Shown one piece after another: positions 2,334 through 39,372 of a DNA stretch of 63,392 nucleotides. Under the pieces are notes generated by a model. That model was given only the letters and a program-made list of their open reading frames with translations, searched no databases and was not told where the DNA came from. Within the stretch, counting starts at the first letter, position 1. Each line of letters starts with the position of its first letter. Location of the stretch: assembly GCA_002780005.1 (NCBI GenBank), contig PEWV01000060.1, positions 1-63,392 of the forward strand, read 5' to 3'. The stretch comes from Candidatus Aquitaenariimonas noxiae. Lineage in GTDB: Bacteria; Omnitrophota; Gorgyraeia; Aquitaenariimonadales; Aquitaenariimonadaceae. The translations under genes were made by a program, and so were the position numbers.

Positions 2334-3104
2334 TTACAAGAATTTCTTTTTAAGTTTTGAGCAGCTTATATATAAAACTACACTGGTATATAAAATAGTA
2401 TATACTATAACGCCCGAAAGAACCCATAAAGGAAAGGCTTCCCAGGAATGGGCCAATCTTACGCGCAGATCGTAAAATTCGTAATGCGGGATTACATAAT
2501 AAACTATATTCAATAATACGGATTCGATCCCTGTTCGGGAAATAACTATCGCCCGCAGTTTATCCGCAAACCAGATAATAGCAAAATAAATTACAAATGA
2601 CACCGTAATGCCGGCGGAAAGAGTTAAGTATAGCGTAAGCAATATAGATATAGCGGATACTAGGCTTAAAAAACAAATACCCATTATATAAGCCTGGATA
2701 ACTAATGAAAACGCTATCCCTTCGCCCTTGATGCTCGTAACTACGATATAAAGAAAATAAAAAATCGTATAGGCTGAAGACGACGCTAACACAGTTCCGA
2801 GAAACCTGCCTAAAATAAAATGGGTCCTCGTCACCGGTTTTGCCAGTAAAGGCAAAATAGTCTTTGAATCAATTTCTTCGGGTAATTGTTTCGAGGCAAA
2901 TGTAACCGCAATGATAAAAGAAAAAAGCCATAAACAAAAAAATCCTATGTCTTTTATATATCGAGACACGTTCCTGGCGCCAAAGAAGTTTTCTGATAGT
3001 AGAGACACCAGAAGCACCAGCAACATAATAAAAAAAACATAGAAATCTTTTTTTCTTATTAATGCCTTAATTGTGTTCTGGGCTAATATCCATATCTGTC
3101 TCAT
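2334..3104 (-). CDS. ABC-2 type transporter permease
   Basis: Multi-TM; EIDSKTILPLLAKPVTRTHFILGRFLG motif; adjacent to an ABC ATPase. Confidence 0.85.
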   Translation of the reverse strand: MRQIWILAQNTIKALIRKKDFYVFFIMLLVLLVSLLSENFFGARNVSRYIKDIGFFCLWLFSFIIAVTFASKQLPEEIDSKTILPLLAKPVTRTHFILGRFLGTVLASSSAYTIFYFLYIVVTSIKGEGIAFSLVIQAYIMGICFLSLVSAISILLTLYLTLSAGITVSFVIYFAIIWFADKLRAIVISRTGIESVLLNIVYYVIPHYEFYDLRVRLAHSWEAFPLWVLSGVIVYTILYTSVVLYISCSKLKKKFL

Positions 3105-3105
3105 A

Positions 3106-3843
3106 TTACCTATAATTATCCCCTATAATACTTAGAAAATAGCTCTCGAACGTGGTAGAACCGCCTTTTTTTTTAAGAAGATCTCCTAATTTCCCGGCCC
3201 TCAAAAGCTTCCCGTCTTTTATTATGGCCACCTCATCGCAGATCATCTCAACCTCGGAAAGTTCATGCGATGAGAAAAAAATAGTTTTTCCTTCTCTGTG
3301 AAGCTCTTTTATCACATCCCGCATCTTAATTCTTGAGACGGGGTCAAGCCCGCTTGTCGGCTCATCCAGGATAAGGAGGTCAGGGTCATTTATAAGAGCC
3401 TGGGCAAAACTTACTTTCTGCATCATCCCCTTTGAAAATGTCCGCATCAGGTTATCTGCAGCATCCTTAAGGTCGGACAAATCTATAAGCTTTTCTATCT
3501 TGGCTAGGGCGTTTTTCTTCGATATGCCGAATATCTGAGCGTACATATACAACAATTCCCGAGGCGTAAGATACCAGTAATAATTAGCTATTTCAGGCAT
3601 AAAGCCTATTTTCTGTTTAACCGATAAATTATCGGGAGAGGCGCCCATAATAAGCACTTTTCCTTTATAGCGGGGAATAAGCCCTAGGATGATCTTTATT
3701 GTGGTAGTTTTCCCGGCGCCGTTCGGTCCAAGAAAACCATAGATCTGGCCTTTATAGACATTTAAATCCAGGCCTTGCAGGGCTTCTTTTGAATTTTTGC
3801 TTTCATAATTAACGTAAAGTTTTTCTATTTCTATGTATTTCAT
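3106..3843 (-). CDS. ABC transporter ATP-binding protein
   Basis: GPNGAGKT, FSKGM signature, LLILDEP, SSH. Confidence 0.95.
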   Translation of the reverse strand: MKYIEIEKLYVNYESKNSKEALQGLDLNVYKGQIYGFLGPNGAGKTTTIKIILGLIPRYKGKVLIMGASPDNLSVKQKIGFMPEIANYYWYLTPRELLYMYAQIFGISKKNALAKIEKLIDLSDLKDAADNLMRTFSKGMMQKVSFAQALINDPDLLILDEPTSGLDPVSRIKMRDVIKELHREGKTIFFSSHELSEVEMICDEVAIIKDGKLLRAGKLGDLLKKKGGSTTFESYFLSIIGDNYR

Positions 3844-4581
3844 TTATGACGGCCTACCAGTATTTTTGTTAACTGTAAGATCCGATAAAAAGGCATAAAA
3901 GTAATCCGGGTGTTTAATATTCAATAAACTTTTTCTGTTTAGTTCCAGGTCTTTGTAAGTCATTTTGTTTATTTCACTTTCTGAATAGCTTAACATGTTT
4001 TCCGGTTTGCCCTTTGTTATAACGCCAATGCCGGTAGCATCATTGATAACAAACACCTTAAGATCGTTTCTTAGGGAGCGCAGGTTCACTATCGTTTTCC
4101 ATACATCACCGGACCAGGCGCCATCATAATCCGGAAAATTCAACTTTTTCATATCTTCTATAGAGGCGGCGGGATAACCCTTCAATTCCGACGTGGGGCT
4201 GCAGTCATGCATGAGGATAATTCCGTTTTTATCCAGATATTTGAGGCAGTTCAATACATCTTTTAATGATTGGTTGTAGGTATGCAACCCATCTATAAAA
4301 ACGACTTTAATTTTATATTTATTGAGCAGTGACGGATATTTTAAAAAGAACTCGTCACTAGTCATCTTGAAAATAACTTCCTTTTCAAAGAACAGCATTT
4401 TTTTTACTTTTCTTTTAATCACATGGAATAGCGGCGGGTTGATCTGGGGTTCCGGATCTACGCCAAATTTTATTTTCGCATTTATGAACCAAAAATTATA
4501 CCCTTTTGCTATACCGATCTCCAGGTACGTACGGGCATTTAAGCTATCCGCAATTGCTTGTACGATCTCAAGCCTTTTCAT
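3844..4581 (-). CDS. Class I SAM-dependent methyltransferase (Methyltransf_24-like)
   Basis: YLEIGI, FIDGLHTY, MHDC, WSGDVWK motifs. Confidence 0.85.
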   Translation of the reverse strand: MKRLEIVQAIADSLNARTYLEIGIAKGYNFWFINAKIKFGVDPEPQINPPLFHVIKRKVKKMLFFEKEVIFKMTSDEFFLKYPSLLNKYKIKVVFIDGLHTYNQSLKDVLNCLKYLDKNGIILMHDCSPTSELKGYPAASIEDMKKLNFPDYDGAWSGDVWKTIVNLRSLRNDLKVFVINDATGIGVITKGKPENMLSYSESEINKMTYKDLELNRKSLLNIKHPDYFYAFLSDLTVNKNTGRPS

Positions 4582-34291: not shown

Positions 34292-35146
34292 TTATTTTAT
34301 GATCGGAACAAAATCGGTTTTTAAAACAATGTCCTGGCCTTCTTTATAAAGCGCAAAATCTATAAATTTTTTCACCAAACCCTGGGGTGCGCCATTGACA
34401 TAAATAAACAATGGTCTTGATATAGGATATTTCCCATCTACGACATTTTCGATCGTCGGCGTAATATACTCTGAGCTCGCGTCTTTGGCAACGGCTATTG
34501 CTTTTTGTTTTGCGGATATATACCCCATACCATAATATCCTATCGCTGACGCATTACCTGCGACTTCATCGGCGATTGCCTGTGAAGAAGAAAGAAGAAG
34601 CGCGCTTTGCGCGAACTCTTCCTTACCGTCAGCATTGCCTTTTCTCAAAACGTGTTCTTTAAAATAAACATGGGTGCCGGAATTTATCTCACGTGAAAGT
34701 ATTACGATTTTTTCATCCTTACCACCTACATCTTTCCAGTTGGAAATGGTACCTGTAAAAATTCCTGCCAGCTGATCTAAGGTAAGTTTGCTGACCGGAT
34801 TGGCCGGATTCACTACTACCGCAAGGCCGTCCAAAGCTACTTTGATCTCTGTTGGATTTATACCTTTTTGGTTAGCAAGCGATATTTCTTTTCCTTTAAT
34901 ACTTCTTGAAGCCATTGCAATATCGCAAGTCCCGCTTATAAGGCTGGAAAATCCCGTACCCGAACCGCCGCCCGTAACCGCAACAAACTCTCCGGGGTTC
35001 TCTTCCATGTACTTCTCTGCCCATGCCTGGCCCAAATTCACCATAGTATCCGAACCCTTAACCTGTATTGAATTTTTCCCCGATTTGGCAAGAGCCGGAC
35101 CCGTGAGCATAAGCGCCATTAAAATAATTAACCCCTTCTTGAACAT
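34292..35146 (-). CDS. pstS: Phosphate-binding protein PstS
   Basis: KGSDT, GGGSGTG, SGTH, YPISRPL. Confidence 0.95.
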   Translation of the reverse strand: MFKKGLIILMALMLTGPALAKSGKNSIQVKGSDTMVNLGQAWAEKYMEENPGEFVAVTGGGSGTGFSSLISGTCDIAMASRSIKGKEISLANQKGINPTEIKVALDGLAVVVNPANPVSKLTLDQLAGIFTGTISNWKDVGGKDEKIVILSREINSGTHVYFKEHVLRKGNADGKEEFAQSALLLSSSQAIADEVAGNASAIGYYGMGYISAKQKAIAVAKDASSEYITPTIENVVDGKYPISRPLFIYVNGAPQGLVKKFIDFALYKEGQDIVLKTDFVPIIK

Positions 35147-35167
35147 AAATTCCTCCTTTTTTCTTAA

Positions 35168-35220
35168 ATTATACTTTAGTCATGTAATATTTATGTTATA
35201 CCAATGTAAAATCTATGTAA
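35168..35220 (-). promoter_or_regulatory. Pho-box array and -10 of pstS
   Basis: Four TT/TAACAT-like units at exact 11-bp spacing (35182, 35193, 35204, 35215), then TATAAT 8 bp downstream. Confidence 0.8.
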
Positions 35221-35233
35221 AATTAATTTTTTG

Positions 35234-36532
35234 CTAGAATTTCATATTCCAATCCACCTATGCAACAATAGCCGGACTAGACTGTGTAGAGCCAAACTGG
35301 CTTTTAATCTTTTGAGCCTGATAAAAATCAAAACCGATCCATGTGTTCTTGGCTAAACCCCAATCGAACATAATTTCATGCGCTTTCATTCCGGTCTTGC
35401 CGTCATAACGGTCTGAATCAGGCAGTGTATCAAGAATGGCGTCTCTGTCAAGTGCGGCATAGTTATATCGCACCTGCCAATCAGCCCATTTTTCTACCTT
35501 CTCGGCTCCCAGTTTACACCCAAGCATATACCCTTTATTATATTTAATACCTGAATCGACATTCTGCACATATTCTCCGAACAGGGCTATATACGGTAAA
35601 TCCAAACCTATCGGCTTAAACGGCTCTTTAAAACTGAGCTCGAGGGCCGGTATGATTTCCCTATAATCATACTTCAAACGTCCGCTGACAGTACTGCCGC
35701 TCACAGTATAACCGGTATTAGTACCTTTTGTGCCGGACAATAAGTTGTCTTTTGCATTTGCGAAATGATAGTAAGAAATCGCACCCTTAAGAGAGGTCGT
35801 ATCATTGATCGCAAGGTTAAAACCAGGCTGTATCGCGTACATCATGGGATCATGATCGGATGCTGATTGTTCCTCTATTACATAAACTCCGGAATTCAAA
35901 AAAAGGTCAAGCTCAGAATTGATTTTTTTGGTCAATTTAACAGCGCCGCCTTCCGGATTGATATCTGTATCCCAAACAAGATCTCCCGGTTCCCAAAGGT
36001 TATTTTTAAATTTGCCTCCTATAAAAGTGGCCCAGGAAAAAGGCGCATATTGCGCATAGGCATAATCAAAAGCAATAGCCTTCTTGCTGAAACCTTTTTC
36101 AAGCGACGCATTAGTCGATCTTGCGGCATCTGCTGAACCGTCAGACAGGCCGGTTGCTATGCCGATCCCAGCCAAAATCTTATCGTTCACCTTTGACTCG
36201 AGCCCCAACCTCGTTCTAATGCGGACCCTATCGCGATAAATTGAATTATTTGTTGTACTTTTTGAATGGTCACGTTGATATCTTAACCTAAAATCGCCTT
36301 TCAGCTTAGTGTTCTGAACCCATTGGGGCAAAGAAGAACTCTTGCCTTCAGCTATCTCTTTTTTAACCTCTTCCTTTGTTTCCGTAATGATCTGCTGCGC
36401 TTCGCCCGGAGTAAGCACACCCTTTTCAATGAGCTTATTGACCAGCGTGTCAATTTCGCCGGCAAAACAATATCCTATACCTATCCACATAAATACAGCC
36501 ATAAATACCGCAAACCTAAACAACTTTTTCAT
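35234..36532 (-). pseudogene. Putative porin (phosphate-associated) with in-frame TAG 8 codons before the natural end
   Basis: GDFRLRY, DINPEG, DSD motifs; ...PAIVA*VDWNMKF* (TAG at 35258-35260, natural TAG at 35234-35236). Confidence 0.8.
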
Positions 36533-36557
36533 TCTTTCACTCCTTCCTTATTTTATA

Positions 36558-36674
36558 TCAGGCGCATCGCCTGTAATATCTGTCCATTTGTTCGATTTCG
36601 CCATTAATGATATTTTTTGCACTTGTCGTAATGATCGATGCAAGTTTGTATATCCAGATAATCATATTTTTCAT
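36558..36674 (-). CDS. Unannotated 38-aa small protein
   Basis: SD GAAGGGGGG; MKNMIIWIYKLASIITTSAKNIINGEIEQMDRYYRRCA; fills the gap before the porin SD. Confidence 0.55.
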   Translation of the reverse strand: MKNMIIWIYKLASIITTSAKNIINGEIEQMDRYYRRCA

Positions 36675-36697
36675 ATCCCCCCTTCATTATTTTTTAC

Positions 36698-36820
36698 CTA
36701 TGTCCAATCCTCGTTAAAATACTGCTGGTTAAATCCATTGACTCTTTCTGCTTCCCTATCTATAATGCGGTTGAAGAAGCCTGTTATTAAACGGATCATT
36801 TTAACTAGCGCGCTTTTCAT
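36698..36820 (-). CDS. Unannotated 40-aa small protein
   Basis: SD GAGGTGAG; MKSALVKMIRLITGFFNRIIDREAERVNGFNQQYFNEDWT. Confidence 0.6.
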   Translation of the reverse strand: MKSALVKMIRLITGFFNRIIDREAERVNGFNQQYFNEDWT

Positions 36821-36844
36821 ATCTCACCTCTTTTTTTCAATTCA

Positions 36845-36899
36845 AGTATACAAGGGGGATATTAAATGCGCTTCAAAGGAATGTTAAATAGGGGTAAAA
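36845..36899 (-). promoter_or_regulatory. Degenerate Pho-box array and -10 upstream of the sORFs and porin
   Basis: TTTTACCC, TTTAACAT, TTTGAAGC, TTTAATAT at 11-bp period; TATACT 8 bp downstream, same geometry as pstS. Confidence 0.65.
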
Positions 36900-36920
36900 T
36901 TATTTTGGTGGATTTTTGGA

Positions 36921-38696
36921 CTATTTCGGGATAGTGAACCAAAACTTCGAGCCGAGGCCTTCAGCGCTTTCTACGCCTACATTGCCGCCGTGAAGCTCGA
37001 CAATGTGTTTAACGATAGAAAGCCCAAGGCCGGTTCCGCCGAGTTCGCGCGAGCGCGCTTTGTCTACACGGTAGAAACGCTCAAAAATGCGGGGAATGTC
37101 TTTTTCTGGAATGCCGATTCCTTTATCTTCTACAAAAACTTTTATTTTTCCATTTACTTCCTGGATATATATCCGAATAGCGCCCTTTTCTTTGTTAAAT
37201 TTTATTGCATTATCAATAAGGTTAGTGAACACCTGCTCCATTCTATCTTGATCGGCTGTTACCGAAATACTTATAGGCAACTCATTCTTAACCTCTATAC
37301 CGTTCTTCTTCAGTTGAGCCTTAAATGTTGAGATGGCTTCTTCAAGTTGTTGCCTTAAATTAAAGCTTTTCTTATTAAGTATTATTTCTTTTGATTCAAG
37401 ATGTGACAGAGAAAGCAAATCCTCAACTAAGTTATTAAGACGTTCAGTATGGTCATATATAATCTTCAAGAAATTACGGTTATTTTCCTTATCATCCAAA
37501 GCGCCCTCAAGTAGCGTCTCCACGAAGCCTTTTATGGAAGTAAGCGGTGTTTTTAACTCATGCGAAACGTTAGCAACAAAATCACTGCGCATGGTCTCAA
37601 GCCGTCTCATTTCGGTTATGTCATGTATGACCGCCAAGCACCCGTTTATGCTATCATTGTCAAAAATAGGAACGGCGTTGATCTGAAATATTTTACGCAC
37701 AGGCAAAACAAGGCTTATTTCACCCGAGACGGATCTACCGTTCTTTATGGCATCGTTTATAGATTCCGAGATATCATTATTACGTATTGCTTCTAACAAC
37801 AATTTACCTTCCACGTATTTTTTGGAGATACCGAATATCTTCTCAACGGTAGGATTAATGGAAATCACGCGAGCGGACTTATCTACAACGATCACACCTT
37901 CGATCATGCTATTAAAAATTGCCGCTACCTTTTGGTTTTGGGCTTCGATCTCTTTGATCTTATCCTCTATATCTTGCGCCATGTTATTTAAGGTATTAGC
38001 GAGCTCACCTATCTCATCTTTAGAGTTATGGATTATTCTGCGGCTAAAATCGCCCTCTGAAAATTTGCGTGAAATCTGGATCATCCTGTTGATCGGTTTA
38101 ATAGTGCGGCGTGCAACAATAGAACCTAAGATAAAAGCGAACACAAGCGCAAAAAGCAGTCCAATAAAGACTATTCTTCTAATCGCGAATAATGTCTTTT
38201 GTACGCTCTCTAAAGGAAGGGACAATCTCAGTATTCCTGGGATTGCGGTCTTATTTTTAATAGGTACAGCAACATATAGCATATCTATCTTTAGGGTAGA
38301 TGAATAACGCGTATCTATACCGGTGACACCGGTTAAAGCAACTTTTACTTCCGGCCGGTAAAGATGGTTTTCCATTTGAGGAATTTCTTCCTGTGATTTT
38401 TCGGAATCGGCCAAAACCCTGCCTTTGCTATCAATAATAGTAATACGGCATTTTGTCTTAAGCCTCGAGGCCTTCACTAGAGATTCTAAGTACGGGGTAT
38501 CTTCCTGCCTCAGGCGCTCAGGGAAAATCTGGCTTTCGATCAAATTAGCCTGAGTAATTAGGGAGGATTCAATGTTGCGGATGGAGTTCTCTTCTAAATT
38601 TTTATCTAAAAAGAAGGCTATAAATCCGAAGGAAACTAAAATTACAAAAATATAAGAAAAAATCAGTTTTAGTTTAAAACTAATCTTCATATTCAA
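36921..38696 (-). CDS. phoR: PhoR-type sensor histidine kinase (HAMP-PAS-HisKA-HATPase)
   Basis: VANVSHELKTPLTSIKG, NLIDNAIK, FERFYRVDKARSRELGGTGLGL. Confidence 0.92.
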   Translation of the reverse strand: MNMKISFKLKLIFSYIFVILVSFGFIAFFLDKNLEENSIRNIESSLITQANLIESQIFPERLRQEDTPYLESLVKASRLKTKCRITIIDSKGRVLADSEKSQEEIPQMENHLYRPEVKVALTGVTGIDTRYSSTLKIDMLYVAVPIKNKTAIPGILRLSLPLESVQKTLFAIRRIVFIGLLFALVFAFILGSIVARRTIKPINRMIQISRKFSEGDFSRRIIHNSKDEIGELANTLNNMAQDIEDKIKEIEAQNQKVAAIFNSMIEGVIVVDKSARVISINPTVEKIFGISKKYVEGKLLLEAIRNNDISESINDAIKNGRSVSGEISLVLPVRKIFQINAVPIFDNDSINGCLAVIHDITEMRRLETMRSDFVANVSHELKTPLTSIKGFVETLLEGALDDKENNRNFLKIIYDHTERLNNLVEDLLSLSHLESKEIILNKKSFNLRQQLEEAISTFKAQLKKNGIEVKNELPISISVTADQDRMEQVFTNLIDNAIKFNKEKGAIRIYIQEVNGKIKVFVEDKGIGIPEKDIPRIFERFYRVDKARSRELGGTGLGLSIVKHIVELHGGNVGVESAEGLGSKFWFTIPK

Positions 38697-39372
38697 ATCT
38701 ATATCCGTAATTTTTCACGGTAATAATGTATTTTGACTCGCTTTTCAACTTTTTGCGCAGCGTTCTAATATGAACATCTACCGTGCGGGTCTGGATCTCC
38801 ATAGCATGATCAATTCCCCAAACTGTGTCTAAAAGATGATCCCGAGACAAAACCCTGCCTTTGGCTTTTATTAAAGTTTTTAATAGTTCAAATTCTTTCG
38901 CCGTAAGTTCTACGGGTTTATCTTTTACCGTTACTGCGATCTTAGAAAAATCGATCGCCAAATCACCTATTTTTAATACCTCAGGCGTTTTATCTTTTTC
39001 TTTTACGCGGCGCAGTACGGCCTTTATTCTGGCGATTAATTCTCTTGGGCTGAAAGGTTTAGTCATATAATCATCCGCGCCTAATTCCAACCCTACTATT
39101 TTATCCGATTCCTGGCTTTTTGCCGTAAGCATAATTATAGGAATAGCTGCGGTTTTGCTTTCATTTTTTAGCGTCTTACATACTTCAAAACCATCCATTC
39201 CGGGAAGCATTAGATCCAAAATGATAAGGTCCGGCCGTTCTTTATTCACCAGATCAACGGCATCTTCGCCATCGCGGGTTGAAACCCTTTTAAAACCTTC
39301 CTTTTTAAGATTATAATCAAGCATCTTAATTATATCTTTTTCGTCTTCTACGATCAGTATTTTTTCTTTCAT
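38680..39372 (-). CDS. phoB: PhoB/PhoP-type OmpR family response regulator
   Basis: LDLMLP, GADDYMTKPF, TRTVDVHI; adjacent to phoR and pst. Confidence 0.88.
   Translation of the reverse strand: MKEKILIVEDEKDIIKMLDYNLKKEGFKRVSTRDGEDAVDLVNKERPDLIILDLMLPGMDGFEVCKTLKNESKTAAIPIIMLTAKSQESDKIVGLELGADDYMTKPFSPRELIARIKAVLRRVKEKDKTPEVLKIGDLAIDFSKIAVTVKDKPVELTAKEFELLKTLIKAKGRVLSRDHLLDTVWGIDHAMEIQTRTVDVHIRTLRKKLKSESKYIITVKNYGYRFEYED

Follow-up and report, generated by a model that had tools for sequence, protein, structure and literature searches.

The small-protein genes sA and sB lie on the minus strand of the window, by which we mean the whole stretch of 63,392 nucleotides of Candidatus Aquitaenariimonas noxiae DNA that was analysed (contig PEWV01000060.1). 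They are located between the phoB-phoR genes and a porin gene, as listed in Table 1. In brief, sA encodes a small protein of the A-type and sB one of the B-type. Both genes have a strong Shine-Dalgarno site 5-6 nt upstream of the ATG. The gap between sA and sB is 23 nt, and 25 nt separate sB from the porin ATG (36532). The porin is the third gene of the unit and is followed on the same strand by pstS, pstC, pstA, two pstB genes and phoU. The sequence-only reading had put two ORFs of 40 and 38 aa, tightly spaced and with Shine-Dalgarno sites GAGGTGAG and GAAGGGGGG, directly after the Pho boxes and the -10, and we found them there. It had also called the proteins unannotated. This holds in the sense that neither has a name or a family in public records; both have, however, already been called by public gene callers. 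The sA gene is called in 16 contigs (NCBI, JGI, ENA and Logan) and sB in JGI, as an odd 42-aa call. Groundwater and aquifer metagenomes dating from 2014-2017 contain the stretch without any change; the RNA sequencing runs that were searched for it gave no match.

Table 1. Genes and signals at the sA-sB locus, in positions of the window.
Feature	Position	Strand	Description
phoB	39372..38680	minus	Upstream of sA; Pfam Response_reg and Trans_reg_C
phoR	38696..36921	minus	Directly upstream of the Pho box; Pfam HAMP, PAS, HisKA and HATPase_c
Pho box	36898..36860	minus	Four direct hexamers in place of a -35, read directly: TTTACC 36898..36893, TTAACA 36887..36882, TTGAAG 36876..36871, TTAATA 36865..36860; best PWM match in the window
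-10, TATACT	36850..36845	minus	9 nt past the fourth box unit
sA Shine-Dalgarno	36830..36823	minus	GAGGTGAG
sA	36820..36698	minus	A-type small-protein gene; 40 aa, MKSALVKMIRLITGFFNRIIDREAERVNGFNQQYFNEDWT; length of the interval counts the stop
sB Shine-Dalgarno	36685..36677	minus	GAAGGGGGG
sB	36674..36558	minus	B-type small-protein gene; 38 aa, MKNMIIWIYKLASIITTSAKNIINGEIEQMDRYYRRCA; length of the interval counts the stop
Hairpin CAGGCG-ATG-CGCCTG	36559..36573	minus	Over the final codons of sB, stop included; read from the sequence
Porin gene	36532..35258	minus	Third gene of the unit; Pfam PF16930 (Porin_5), E 1.1e-50
pstS promoter	35224..35183	minus	Second Pho box and TATAAT; PWM 14.5 bits

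Promoters activated by PhoP/PhoB in Bacillus subtilis carry TT(A/T/C)ACA repeats with 11-bp phasing. The putative Omnitrophota site upstream of sA is like such Pho boxes in that four TT(T/A/C)A(C/A)(A/C) hexamers, here with an exact 11-bp period, replace the -35 and are followed by a normal -10. It is unlike them in its third and fourth units, which are more degenerate. A weight matrix (PWM) for the Pho box was made from the aligned equivalent regions of eleven related loci and scanned across the entire window. The box on the side of sA scored 35.7 bits, against a background of no more than 8.7 bits apart from the pstS promoter. The latter is the second-best site; it lies between the porin gene and pstS, and its units TTTTACA, TTTTACA, TATAACA and TATTACA are spaced by 11 bp with TATAAT next to them. 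We did not find a terminator-like site between the porin gene and pstS. Since pstS has a Pho box of its own, the porin unit and pstSCAB-phoU would be driven separately by the Pho system. As judged from these predicted promoters, the unit consists of Pho box, sA, sB and porin, and pstSCAB-phoU has a separate Pho box.

In related loci a variable cassette of genes sits between the Pho box and the porin gene. The architecture of box and -10, ahead of the first cassette gene or of the porin gene, is kept in more than 20 related loci, including loci outside the training set of the PWM. The -10 reads TATACT, TAACTT or TAGGCT and lies at an equal distance from the box. A strong Pho site is found 60-100 nt 5' of the first small gene of the cassette, and where there is no cassette the Pho box is directly 5' of the porin gene. 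With its repeats, 11-bp phasing, -10 and conservation among orthologous loci, the site has the architecture of PhoB/PhoP-type Pho-box promoters. The conserved promoter architecture and gene order also bear out the proposal of the sequence-only reading that a Pho-box porin operon begins with sA and sB. Pho control of the sA-sB unit is well supported by this architecture. Since the two genes lead a unit with a conserved Pho-box promoter, we infer that they would very probably be induced when phosphate is scarce. In two of the relatives (L031, positions 325-420, and L032) the interval from the phoR stop to the Pho box has an insert of approximately 90 bp. The insert contains two GC-rich hairpins (CATTCCCGCGAAAGCGGGAATC and ATGCCCGCTTACGCGGGCAT), has a REP/MITE-like look and is missing in the window and in L030.

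Three short metagenome contigs, L030, L031 and L032, have the same order of phoR end, Pho box, sA and sB as the window. Position, Shine-Dalgarno site, start and stop of both genes are maintained in all three, with the exception of the sA stop, which is missing in L030. In the proposed frames the dN/dS values, calculated according to Nei-Gojobori, were 0.12-0.38 for sA, 0.18-0.66 for sB and 0.15-0.50 for the two genes concatenated. Compared with L031, sB gave 0.18-0.25. The values for sA off frame were 0.35-1.08, and in four of six pairwise comparisons the proposed frame was clearly under both shifted frames (0.35-1.5). Between the window and L030 there are few substitutions and dN/dS was 0.38-0.66; for sB, frame 0 (0.66) was not the lowest here. 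An overlapping ORF of 27 aa at 36604..36687 was rejected, as stops close its frame in L031, and that of sB stays open in each of the three relatives.

To avoid circularity, we rebuilt the family profile described below without the clade of the window and ran it on the 746 ORFs of at least 20 aa in the window. Both small proteins matched this leave-clade-out profile, sA with an E value of 2.7e-16 and sB with 1.9e-4; the next best ORF had 0.24. A profile made from eight B-type members only also matched both, with E values of 2.7e-7 for sA and 1e-5 for sB. The family motif of the profile is M-K-K..I..I..FF-N-R-x-x-D-x-E-A-E-R-V..Y/F. That the two ORFs are genuine small-protein genes, the starting point of the sequence-only reading, is thus upheld by their conserved place in three close relatives, by dN/dS and by the leave-clade-out profile. 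We hold it very probable that sA and sB are both real protein-coding genes.

The sA and sB proteins share 26% identity and are old paralogues; their mutual similarity, which had been seen in the sequences beforehand, is real but old, and one profile matches both. This family profile was built from 14 members of related loci. It retrieved 29 clusters from 5.8 billion proteins, all of them "hypothetical" and none with a Pfam domain, and 107 representative clusters (E <= 1e-3) from 1.84 billion proteins, nearly all of 31-70 aa. A search with the single sA sequence matched only itself; an alignment was required to reach the family. Neither sA nor sB had a match in Pfam (E <= 0.01), NCBIfam, PADLOC or PHROGs, and other family members gave only chance-level matches to unrelated families in Pfam at E <= 1. 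The best match of a profile search (profile A3) against PDB was a helix pair in the middle domain of yeast Hsp90, residues 385-418, with an E value of 0.05. This match is weak but spans the whole 35-residue core, and it is probably a chance likeness of amphipathic helices.

The A-type has FFNR(M/I)(A/I)D(Q/R/K)EAERV as its core; a conserved aromatic position (Y or F) comes next, often with a KPxxGG tail behind it. In the B-type, which is approximately 35 aa long, the core is (I/V)(I/V)D(E/D)E(L/I)x(I/S)MDxFY. Judged by these sequences, sA and sB represent two old subfamilies, A-type and B-type, of one undescribed family. The named genomes with the family are all Omnitrophota MAGs or MAGs labelled as PVC, and a pattern scan with the A-type subset gave four loci, all in Omnitrophota-type MAGs. 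The family thus appears to be specific to Omnitrophota.

Starting from family members, and not from the porin, we reached 12 loci (L030-L041) representing 10 distinct arrangements, with L031/L032, L033/L034 and L037/L038 as near-duplicate pairs. Each of the 12 is either a phosphate locus or a short fragment that carries the partner receiver gene. On contigs that are long enough, the family gene is located behind phoB-phoR and ahead of Porin_5-pstSCAB. Short contigs have a phoR fragment 5' of the family gene, a receiver-only gene directly 3' of it, or both. A position between Pho box or phoB-phoR and Porin_5-pstSCAB is also what the wider set of loci, L002-L041, agrees on wherever the contig reaches.

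In its fullest form the cassette is ordered as B-type gene, receiver-only gene, a gene for a Cys-rich protein of 62-69 aa, A-type gene, a gene for a helical hairpin protein of 61-68 aa, and porin gene. Many cassettes are reduced, and about half of the related porin loci have none. The A- and B-types occur together in seven loci, i.e. the window, L030, L031, L003, L012, L025 and L036; L014 has two A-type copies. The window has only the A- and B-type genes, arranged A-B like those of its close relatives, and receiver-only, Cys-rich and hairpin genes are absent within its 63 kb. In L031 the hairpin gene is kept after sB.

The receiver-only protein has 124-170 aa and is a paralogue of the PhoB receiver in which the acceptor Asp is present. 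Its gene follows the B-type gene within approximately 55 nt, sometimes with an overlap, in eight loci. Receiver-only genes that share this Pho box, mostly as the next gene after the B-type, were observed in L006, L012, L013, L025, L033, L035-L037 and L039-L041. These proteins are candidate phosphate sinks or relay partners. The A-type gene adjoins the gene of the hairpin protein. In three representative clusters the two are fused, and some A-type proteins are fused to the last dozen residues of the hairpin protein.

The other small genes of the cassette form families of their own. The Cys-rich family (MCPCLSSKSKYATC...ERENxC..YELCPLF, 62-69 aa, 6-7 Cys) is encoded between the receiver-only and A-type genes, for example at L025:2398-2595, L003:2597-2794 and L012:2560-2811, and has no Pfam match. 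The hairpin family, with two helices, is encoded just 5' of the porin gene, as at L001:2784-2972, L025:2734-2916 and L031:831-1034. Its members start with an H-box-like RRDFVASHLRSQL, in which the His is not invariant, and end with LRQ(I/L)RKLC. In a profile comparison the A/B family and the hairpin family came out as unrelated, with no significant match. In L003, a complete contig of 1.57 Mb, the A-type ORF lacks a stop and continues into the porin ORF (2794-4326). The result is a frame of 510 aa in which the porin's own Met and signal peptide come 69 residues in.

The porin gene of the window ends at a TAG (35260..35258, minus strand), an in-frame stop at a Gln that is conserved in all 12 relatives examined. 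The stop is 8 codons short of the usual end of the family, ...Q(V/I)DWNMKF in the relatives, and beyond it the frame continues through the last strand, VDWNMKF, to a second stop (35234-35260). The TAG is unchanged in contigs from three of four groundwater runs (X1, X2 and X7; 2014-2017), and the contig of the fourth stops short of the site. As it is repeated across runs, it is not a one-off assembly error. It may reflect a pseudogene, read-through or recoding. The porin nonsense codon and the sA stop lost in L030 could be signs of decay in the lineage of the window.

AlphaFold2, given an alignment of 33 sequences, predicted one continuous helix from residue 2 to 36 with a mean pLDDT of 87. The hydrophobic positions 5, 8/9, 12, 15/16, 19/20, 27, 30 and 34 make a single stripe on this helix. 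The hydrophobic moment of the family points to 147 degrees, and Glu23 is found at 140 degrees, that is, at the centre of the stripe. This Glu is present in 32 of the 33 aligned members and is, besides Met1, the sole nearly invariant residue. The profile has a hydrophobic moment of 0.68 for residues 2-19 and a mean hydrophobicity of -0.13. The net charge of sA is +4 in the N-terminal half, -3 in the C-terminal half and +1 in total. The N-terminal half is predicted to be a basic amphipathic helix; the sequence-only reading had described a basic-hydrophobic amphipathic N-terminus for both proteins.

We did not find a signal peptide or a membrane-spanning stretch in sA or sB. The sA protein is charged throughout; in sB the stretch M4-A19 is broken by K10, and in L030 and L031 by R/Q. 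Both proteins have the length (31-70 aa), the single predicted helix and the Glu on the hydrophobic face that mark the family. We predict that sA and sB are cytoplasmic proteins consisting of a single amphipathic helix, basic and hydrophobic in its N-terminal half and more acidic towards the C-terminus. A lone amphipathic helix of 50 angstrom with a polar residue of the buried type would be expected of a peptide that docks onto a partner or forms a bundle. A natural fusion of an A-type and a hairpin protein was modelled by AlphaFold2 as three helices with a pTM of 0.54. Foldseek gave nothing significant for this fusion; the best match, to the hairpin of the CsoR copper sensor, covered the hairpin part only (30% identity over 56 columns, E 0.15).

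We suggest that sA and sB are produced under control of phosphorylated PhoB (PhoB~P) and tune the response by binding, perhaps as a pair, to a component of the PhoR-PhoB machinery with their hydrophobic stripe and Glu23. We give this reading a probability of about one half. When phosphate becomes limiting, PhoB~P would switch on the unit at its Pho box. The leading two cistrons, sA and sB, each with a Shine-Dalgarno site of its own, would be translated before the porin. The stripe with Glu23 would then dock onto a partner in phosphate signalling, with sA and sB possibly acting together. Candidate partners are the cytoplasmic helices of PhoR or a PhoB-type receiver domain. Such docking would tune the response after it has been switched on.

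A Pho-signalling role for the family is plausible from the gene context: in all loci that reach far enough, the family is found directly behind phoB-phoR, and B-type genes mostly have a PhoB-like receiver-only gene close behind them. In the clade of the window the A- and B-types are kept under purifying selection at a locus with neither receiver-only nor hairpin gene, so the essential partner should be common to all loci, which leaves PhoR, PhoB, or sA and sB for one another. PhoU and the PstB pair had been proposed as targets alongside PhoR; nothing singles out either of them. Two placements on PhoR were tried with hhalign and rejected. In one, the second DHp helix (KIIYDHTERLNNL) was paired with the A/B core, as if the latter mimicked PhoR, and in the other the start of the hairpin family, whose His is not conserved, was aligned with the PhoR H-box (RxDFVA). 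Their probabilities, 0.35% and 4% respectively, are not significant.

A more far-reaching form of the proposal can be made for the cassette as a whole. The A and B helices, the receiver-only protein, the Cys-rich protein and the hairpin protein would together be a lineage-specific, Pho-induced addition to signalling made almost entirely of microproteins. In it the helices would complete or cap helical bundles, either those of PhoR or that of the free hairpin protein, and would steer the flow of phosphoryl groups between PhoR, PhoB and the decoy receiver. In the window the sA:sB pair alone would dock to PhoR/PhoB and set the strength or the duration of the response. We offer this extended version as speculation and think it rather unlikely to hold in full.

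The proteins could also serve transport or the envelope, as peripheral helices at the inner membrane that act on PstCAB/PhoU, on export or assembly of the porin, or on lipids during phosphate limitation. They are always encoded within the Pho-box unit of a Porin_5 gene and beside pstSCAB, and basic amphipathic helices, such as the N-terminal half predicted here (moment 0.68 for residues 2-19, sA +4), often bind membranes. Against this, a protein with neither signal peptide nor membrane-spanning stretch has no access to the outer membrane, and a hydrophobic face with an invariant Glu at its midpoint is more in keeping with contact to a protein than to lipids. The B-type is coupled with a receiver-only gene and not with a transporter gene. 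The cassette is also missing from approximately half of the related porin-pst loci and is thus not needed for transport as such. We consider a role in transport or the envelope unlikely. We find it improbable that the helices merely assemble with themselves, sA with sB or as homo-oligomers, for a job unrelated to PhoR/PhoB or Pst, e.g. in stress, in storage or as a membrane-active (lytic) peptide of a possibly host-dependent, ultra-small bacterium. Such self-assembly would fit the continuous heptad-like stripe of approximately nine turns, the co-occurrence of A- and B-types in seven loci, the two A-type copies in L014, and the fact that these are leaderless amphipathic peptides of 35-45 aa. 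The near-neutral net charge (+1 for sA) and the acidic C-terminal half of sA and of the family consensus are, however, unlike known cationic lytic peptides, the cassette has no exporter gene, and the strict linkage to phoBR points to a signalling context.

Finally, the porin transcript carries sA and sB in its 5' portion, and they might act there in cis, as an RNA element or as upstream ORFs that control the porin, with products that are not functional proteins. The small hairpin over the sB stop could be taken in favour of this, as its arms CAGGC/GCCTG are retained in L030 and L031 where the encoded residues vary (RRCA, RQQA, RQRA). The leader RNA, however, folds no better than shuffled sequences (z = 0.44), and Rfam gave no match over 35100..37000. 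The amino-acid motifs last across approximately 100 clusters despite low nucleotide identity, dN/dS is lowest in frame in four of six comparisons, and the B-type gene often precedes a receiver gene and not the porin gene. An action in cis is therefore highly improbable, and we retain the reading in which sA and sB bind to PhoR or PhoB and tune the response.

Only in a few model organisms, all of them cultured bacteria, are small proteins known that tune two-component systems. The family described here, with approximately 100 clusters, is hard-wired at the phosphate-sensing locus of an uncultured, ultra-small and possibly host-dependent phylum, and is often joined by up to three more microproteins and a decoy-like receiver. 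If binding to PhoR/PhoB is true, it would be a compact example of feedback by single-helix proteins that can be approached without culturing, and the accessory layer of the Pho regulon would be far more varied than model organisms suggest. Irrespective of function, genomes with nameless short genes gain a conserved family, a clear operon structure and a Pho-box consensus specific to the organism.

Among known systems, the analogy with MgrB and SafA made in the sequence-only reading is poor, as those proteins span the membrane and sA and sB are charged amphipathic helices without such a segment. The lack of a transmembrane segment sets them apart from membrane-spanning kinase modulators of the MgrB, SafA and YoaI type in general. 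Sda and Spo0E-type proteins are helical hairpins of 46-85 aa with motifs of their own (e.g. SQELD), which dock on the DHp helices of the kinase or on the receiver domain in the Bacillus phosphorelay. They are similar to sA and sB in being short, all-helical and cytoplasmic, and the pair of B-type and receiver-only protein in the relatives recalls such pairs. They differ in that sA and sB have no Pfam match and are modelled as a single helix, and the two thus fall outside the hairpin regulators.

YoaI of E. coli has 50 aa or less, is induced by PhoR-PhoB and binds EnvZ via a conserved Glu31 (PMC11429745). From their promoter sequence sA and sB would likewise be driven by a Pho box, and they too have one nearly invariant Glu; YoaI, in contrast, is a transmembrane protein that targets EnvZ and not PhoR, and is unrelated in sequence. 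The DUF1127 small proteins, i.e. the SDPs of Agrobacterium tumefaciens and YjiS of E. coli, bind PhoR and restrain pst expression (PMC12501420). As soluble proteins of less than 50 aa in phosphate homeostasis they are the best functional analogy for the reading we prefer. There is no sequence relation, as neither sA nor sB matches DUF1127 in Pfam (E <= 0.01). Moreover, DUF1127 genes are not described as the first cistrons of a Pho-box porin operon, and the contact of sA and sB with PhoR is our hypothesis. Measured against these systems, sA and sB are a new small-protein family within a known arrangement, that of accessory microproteins of a two-component regulon.
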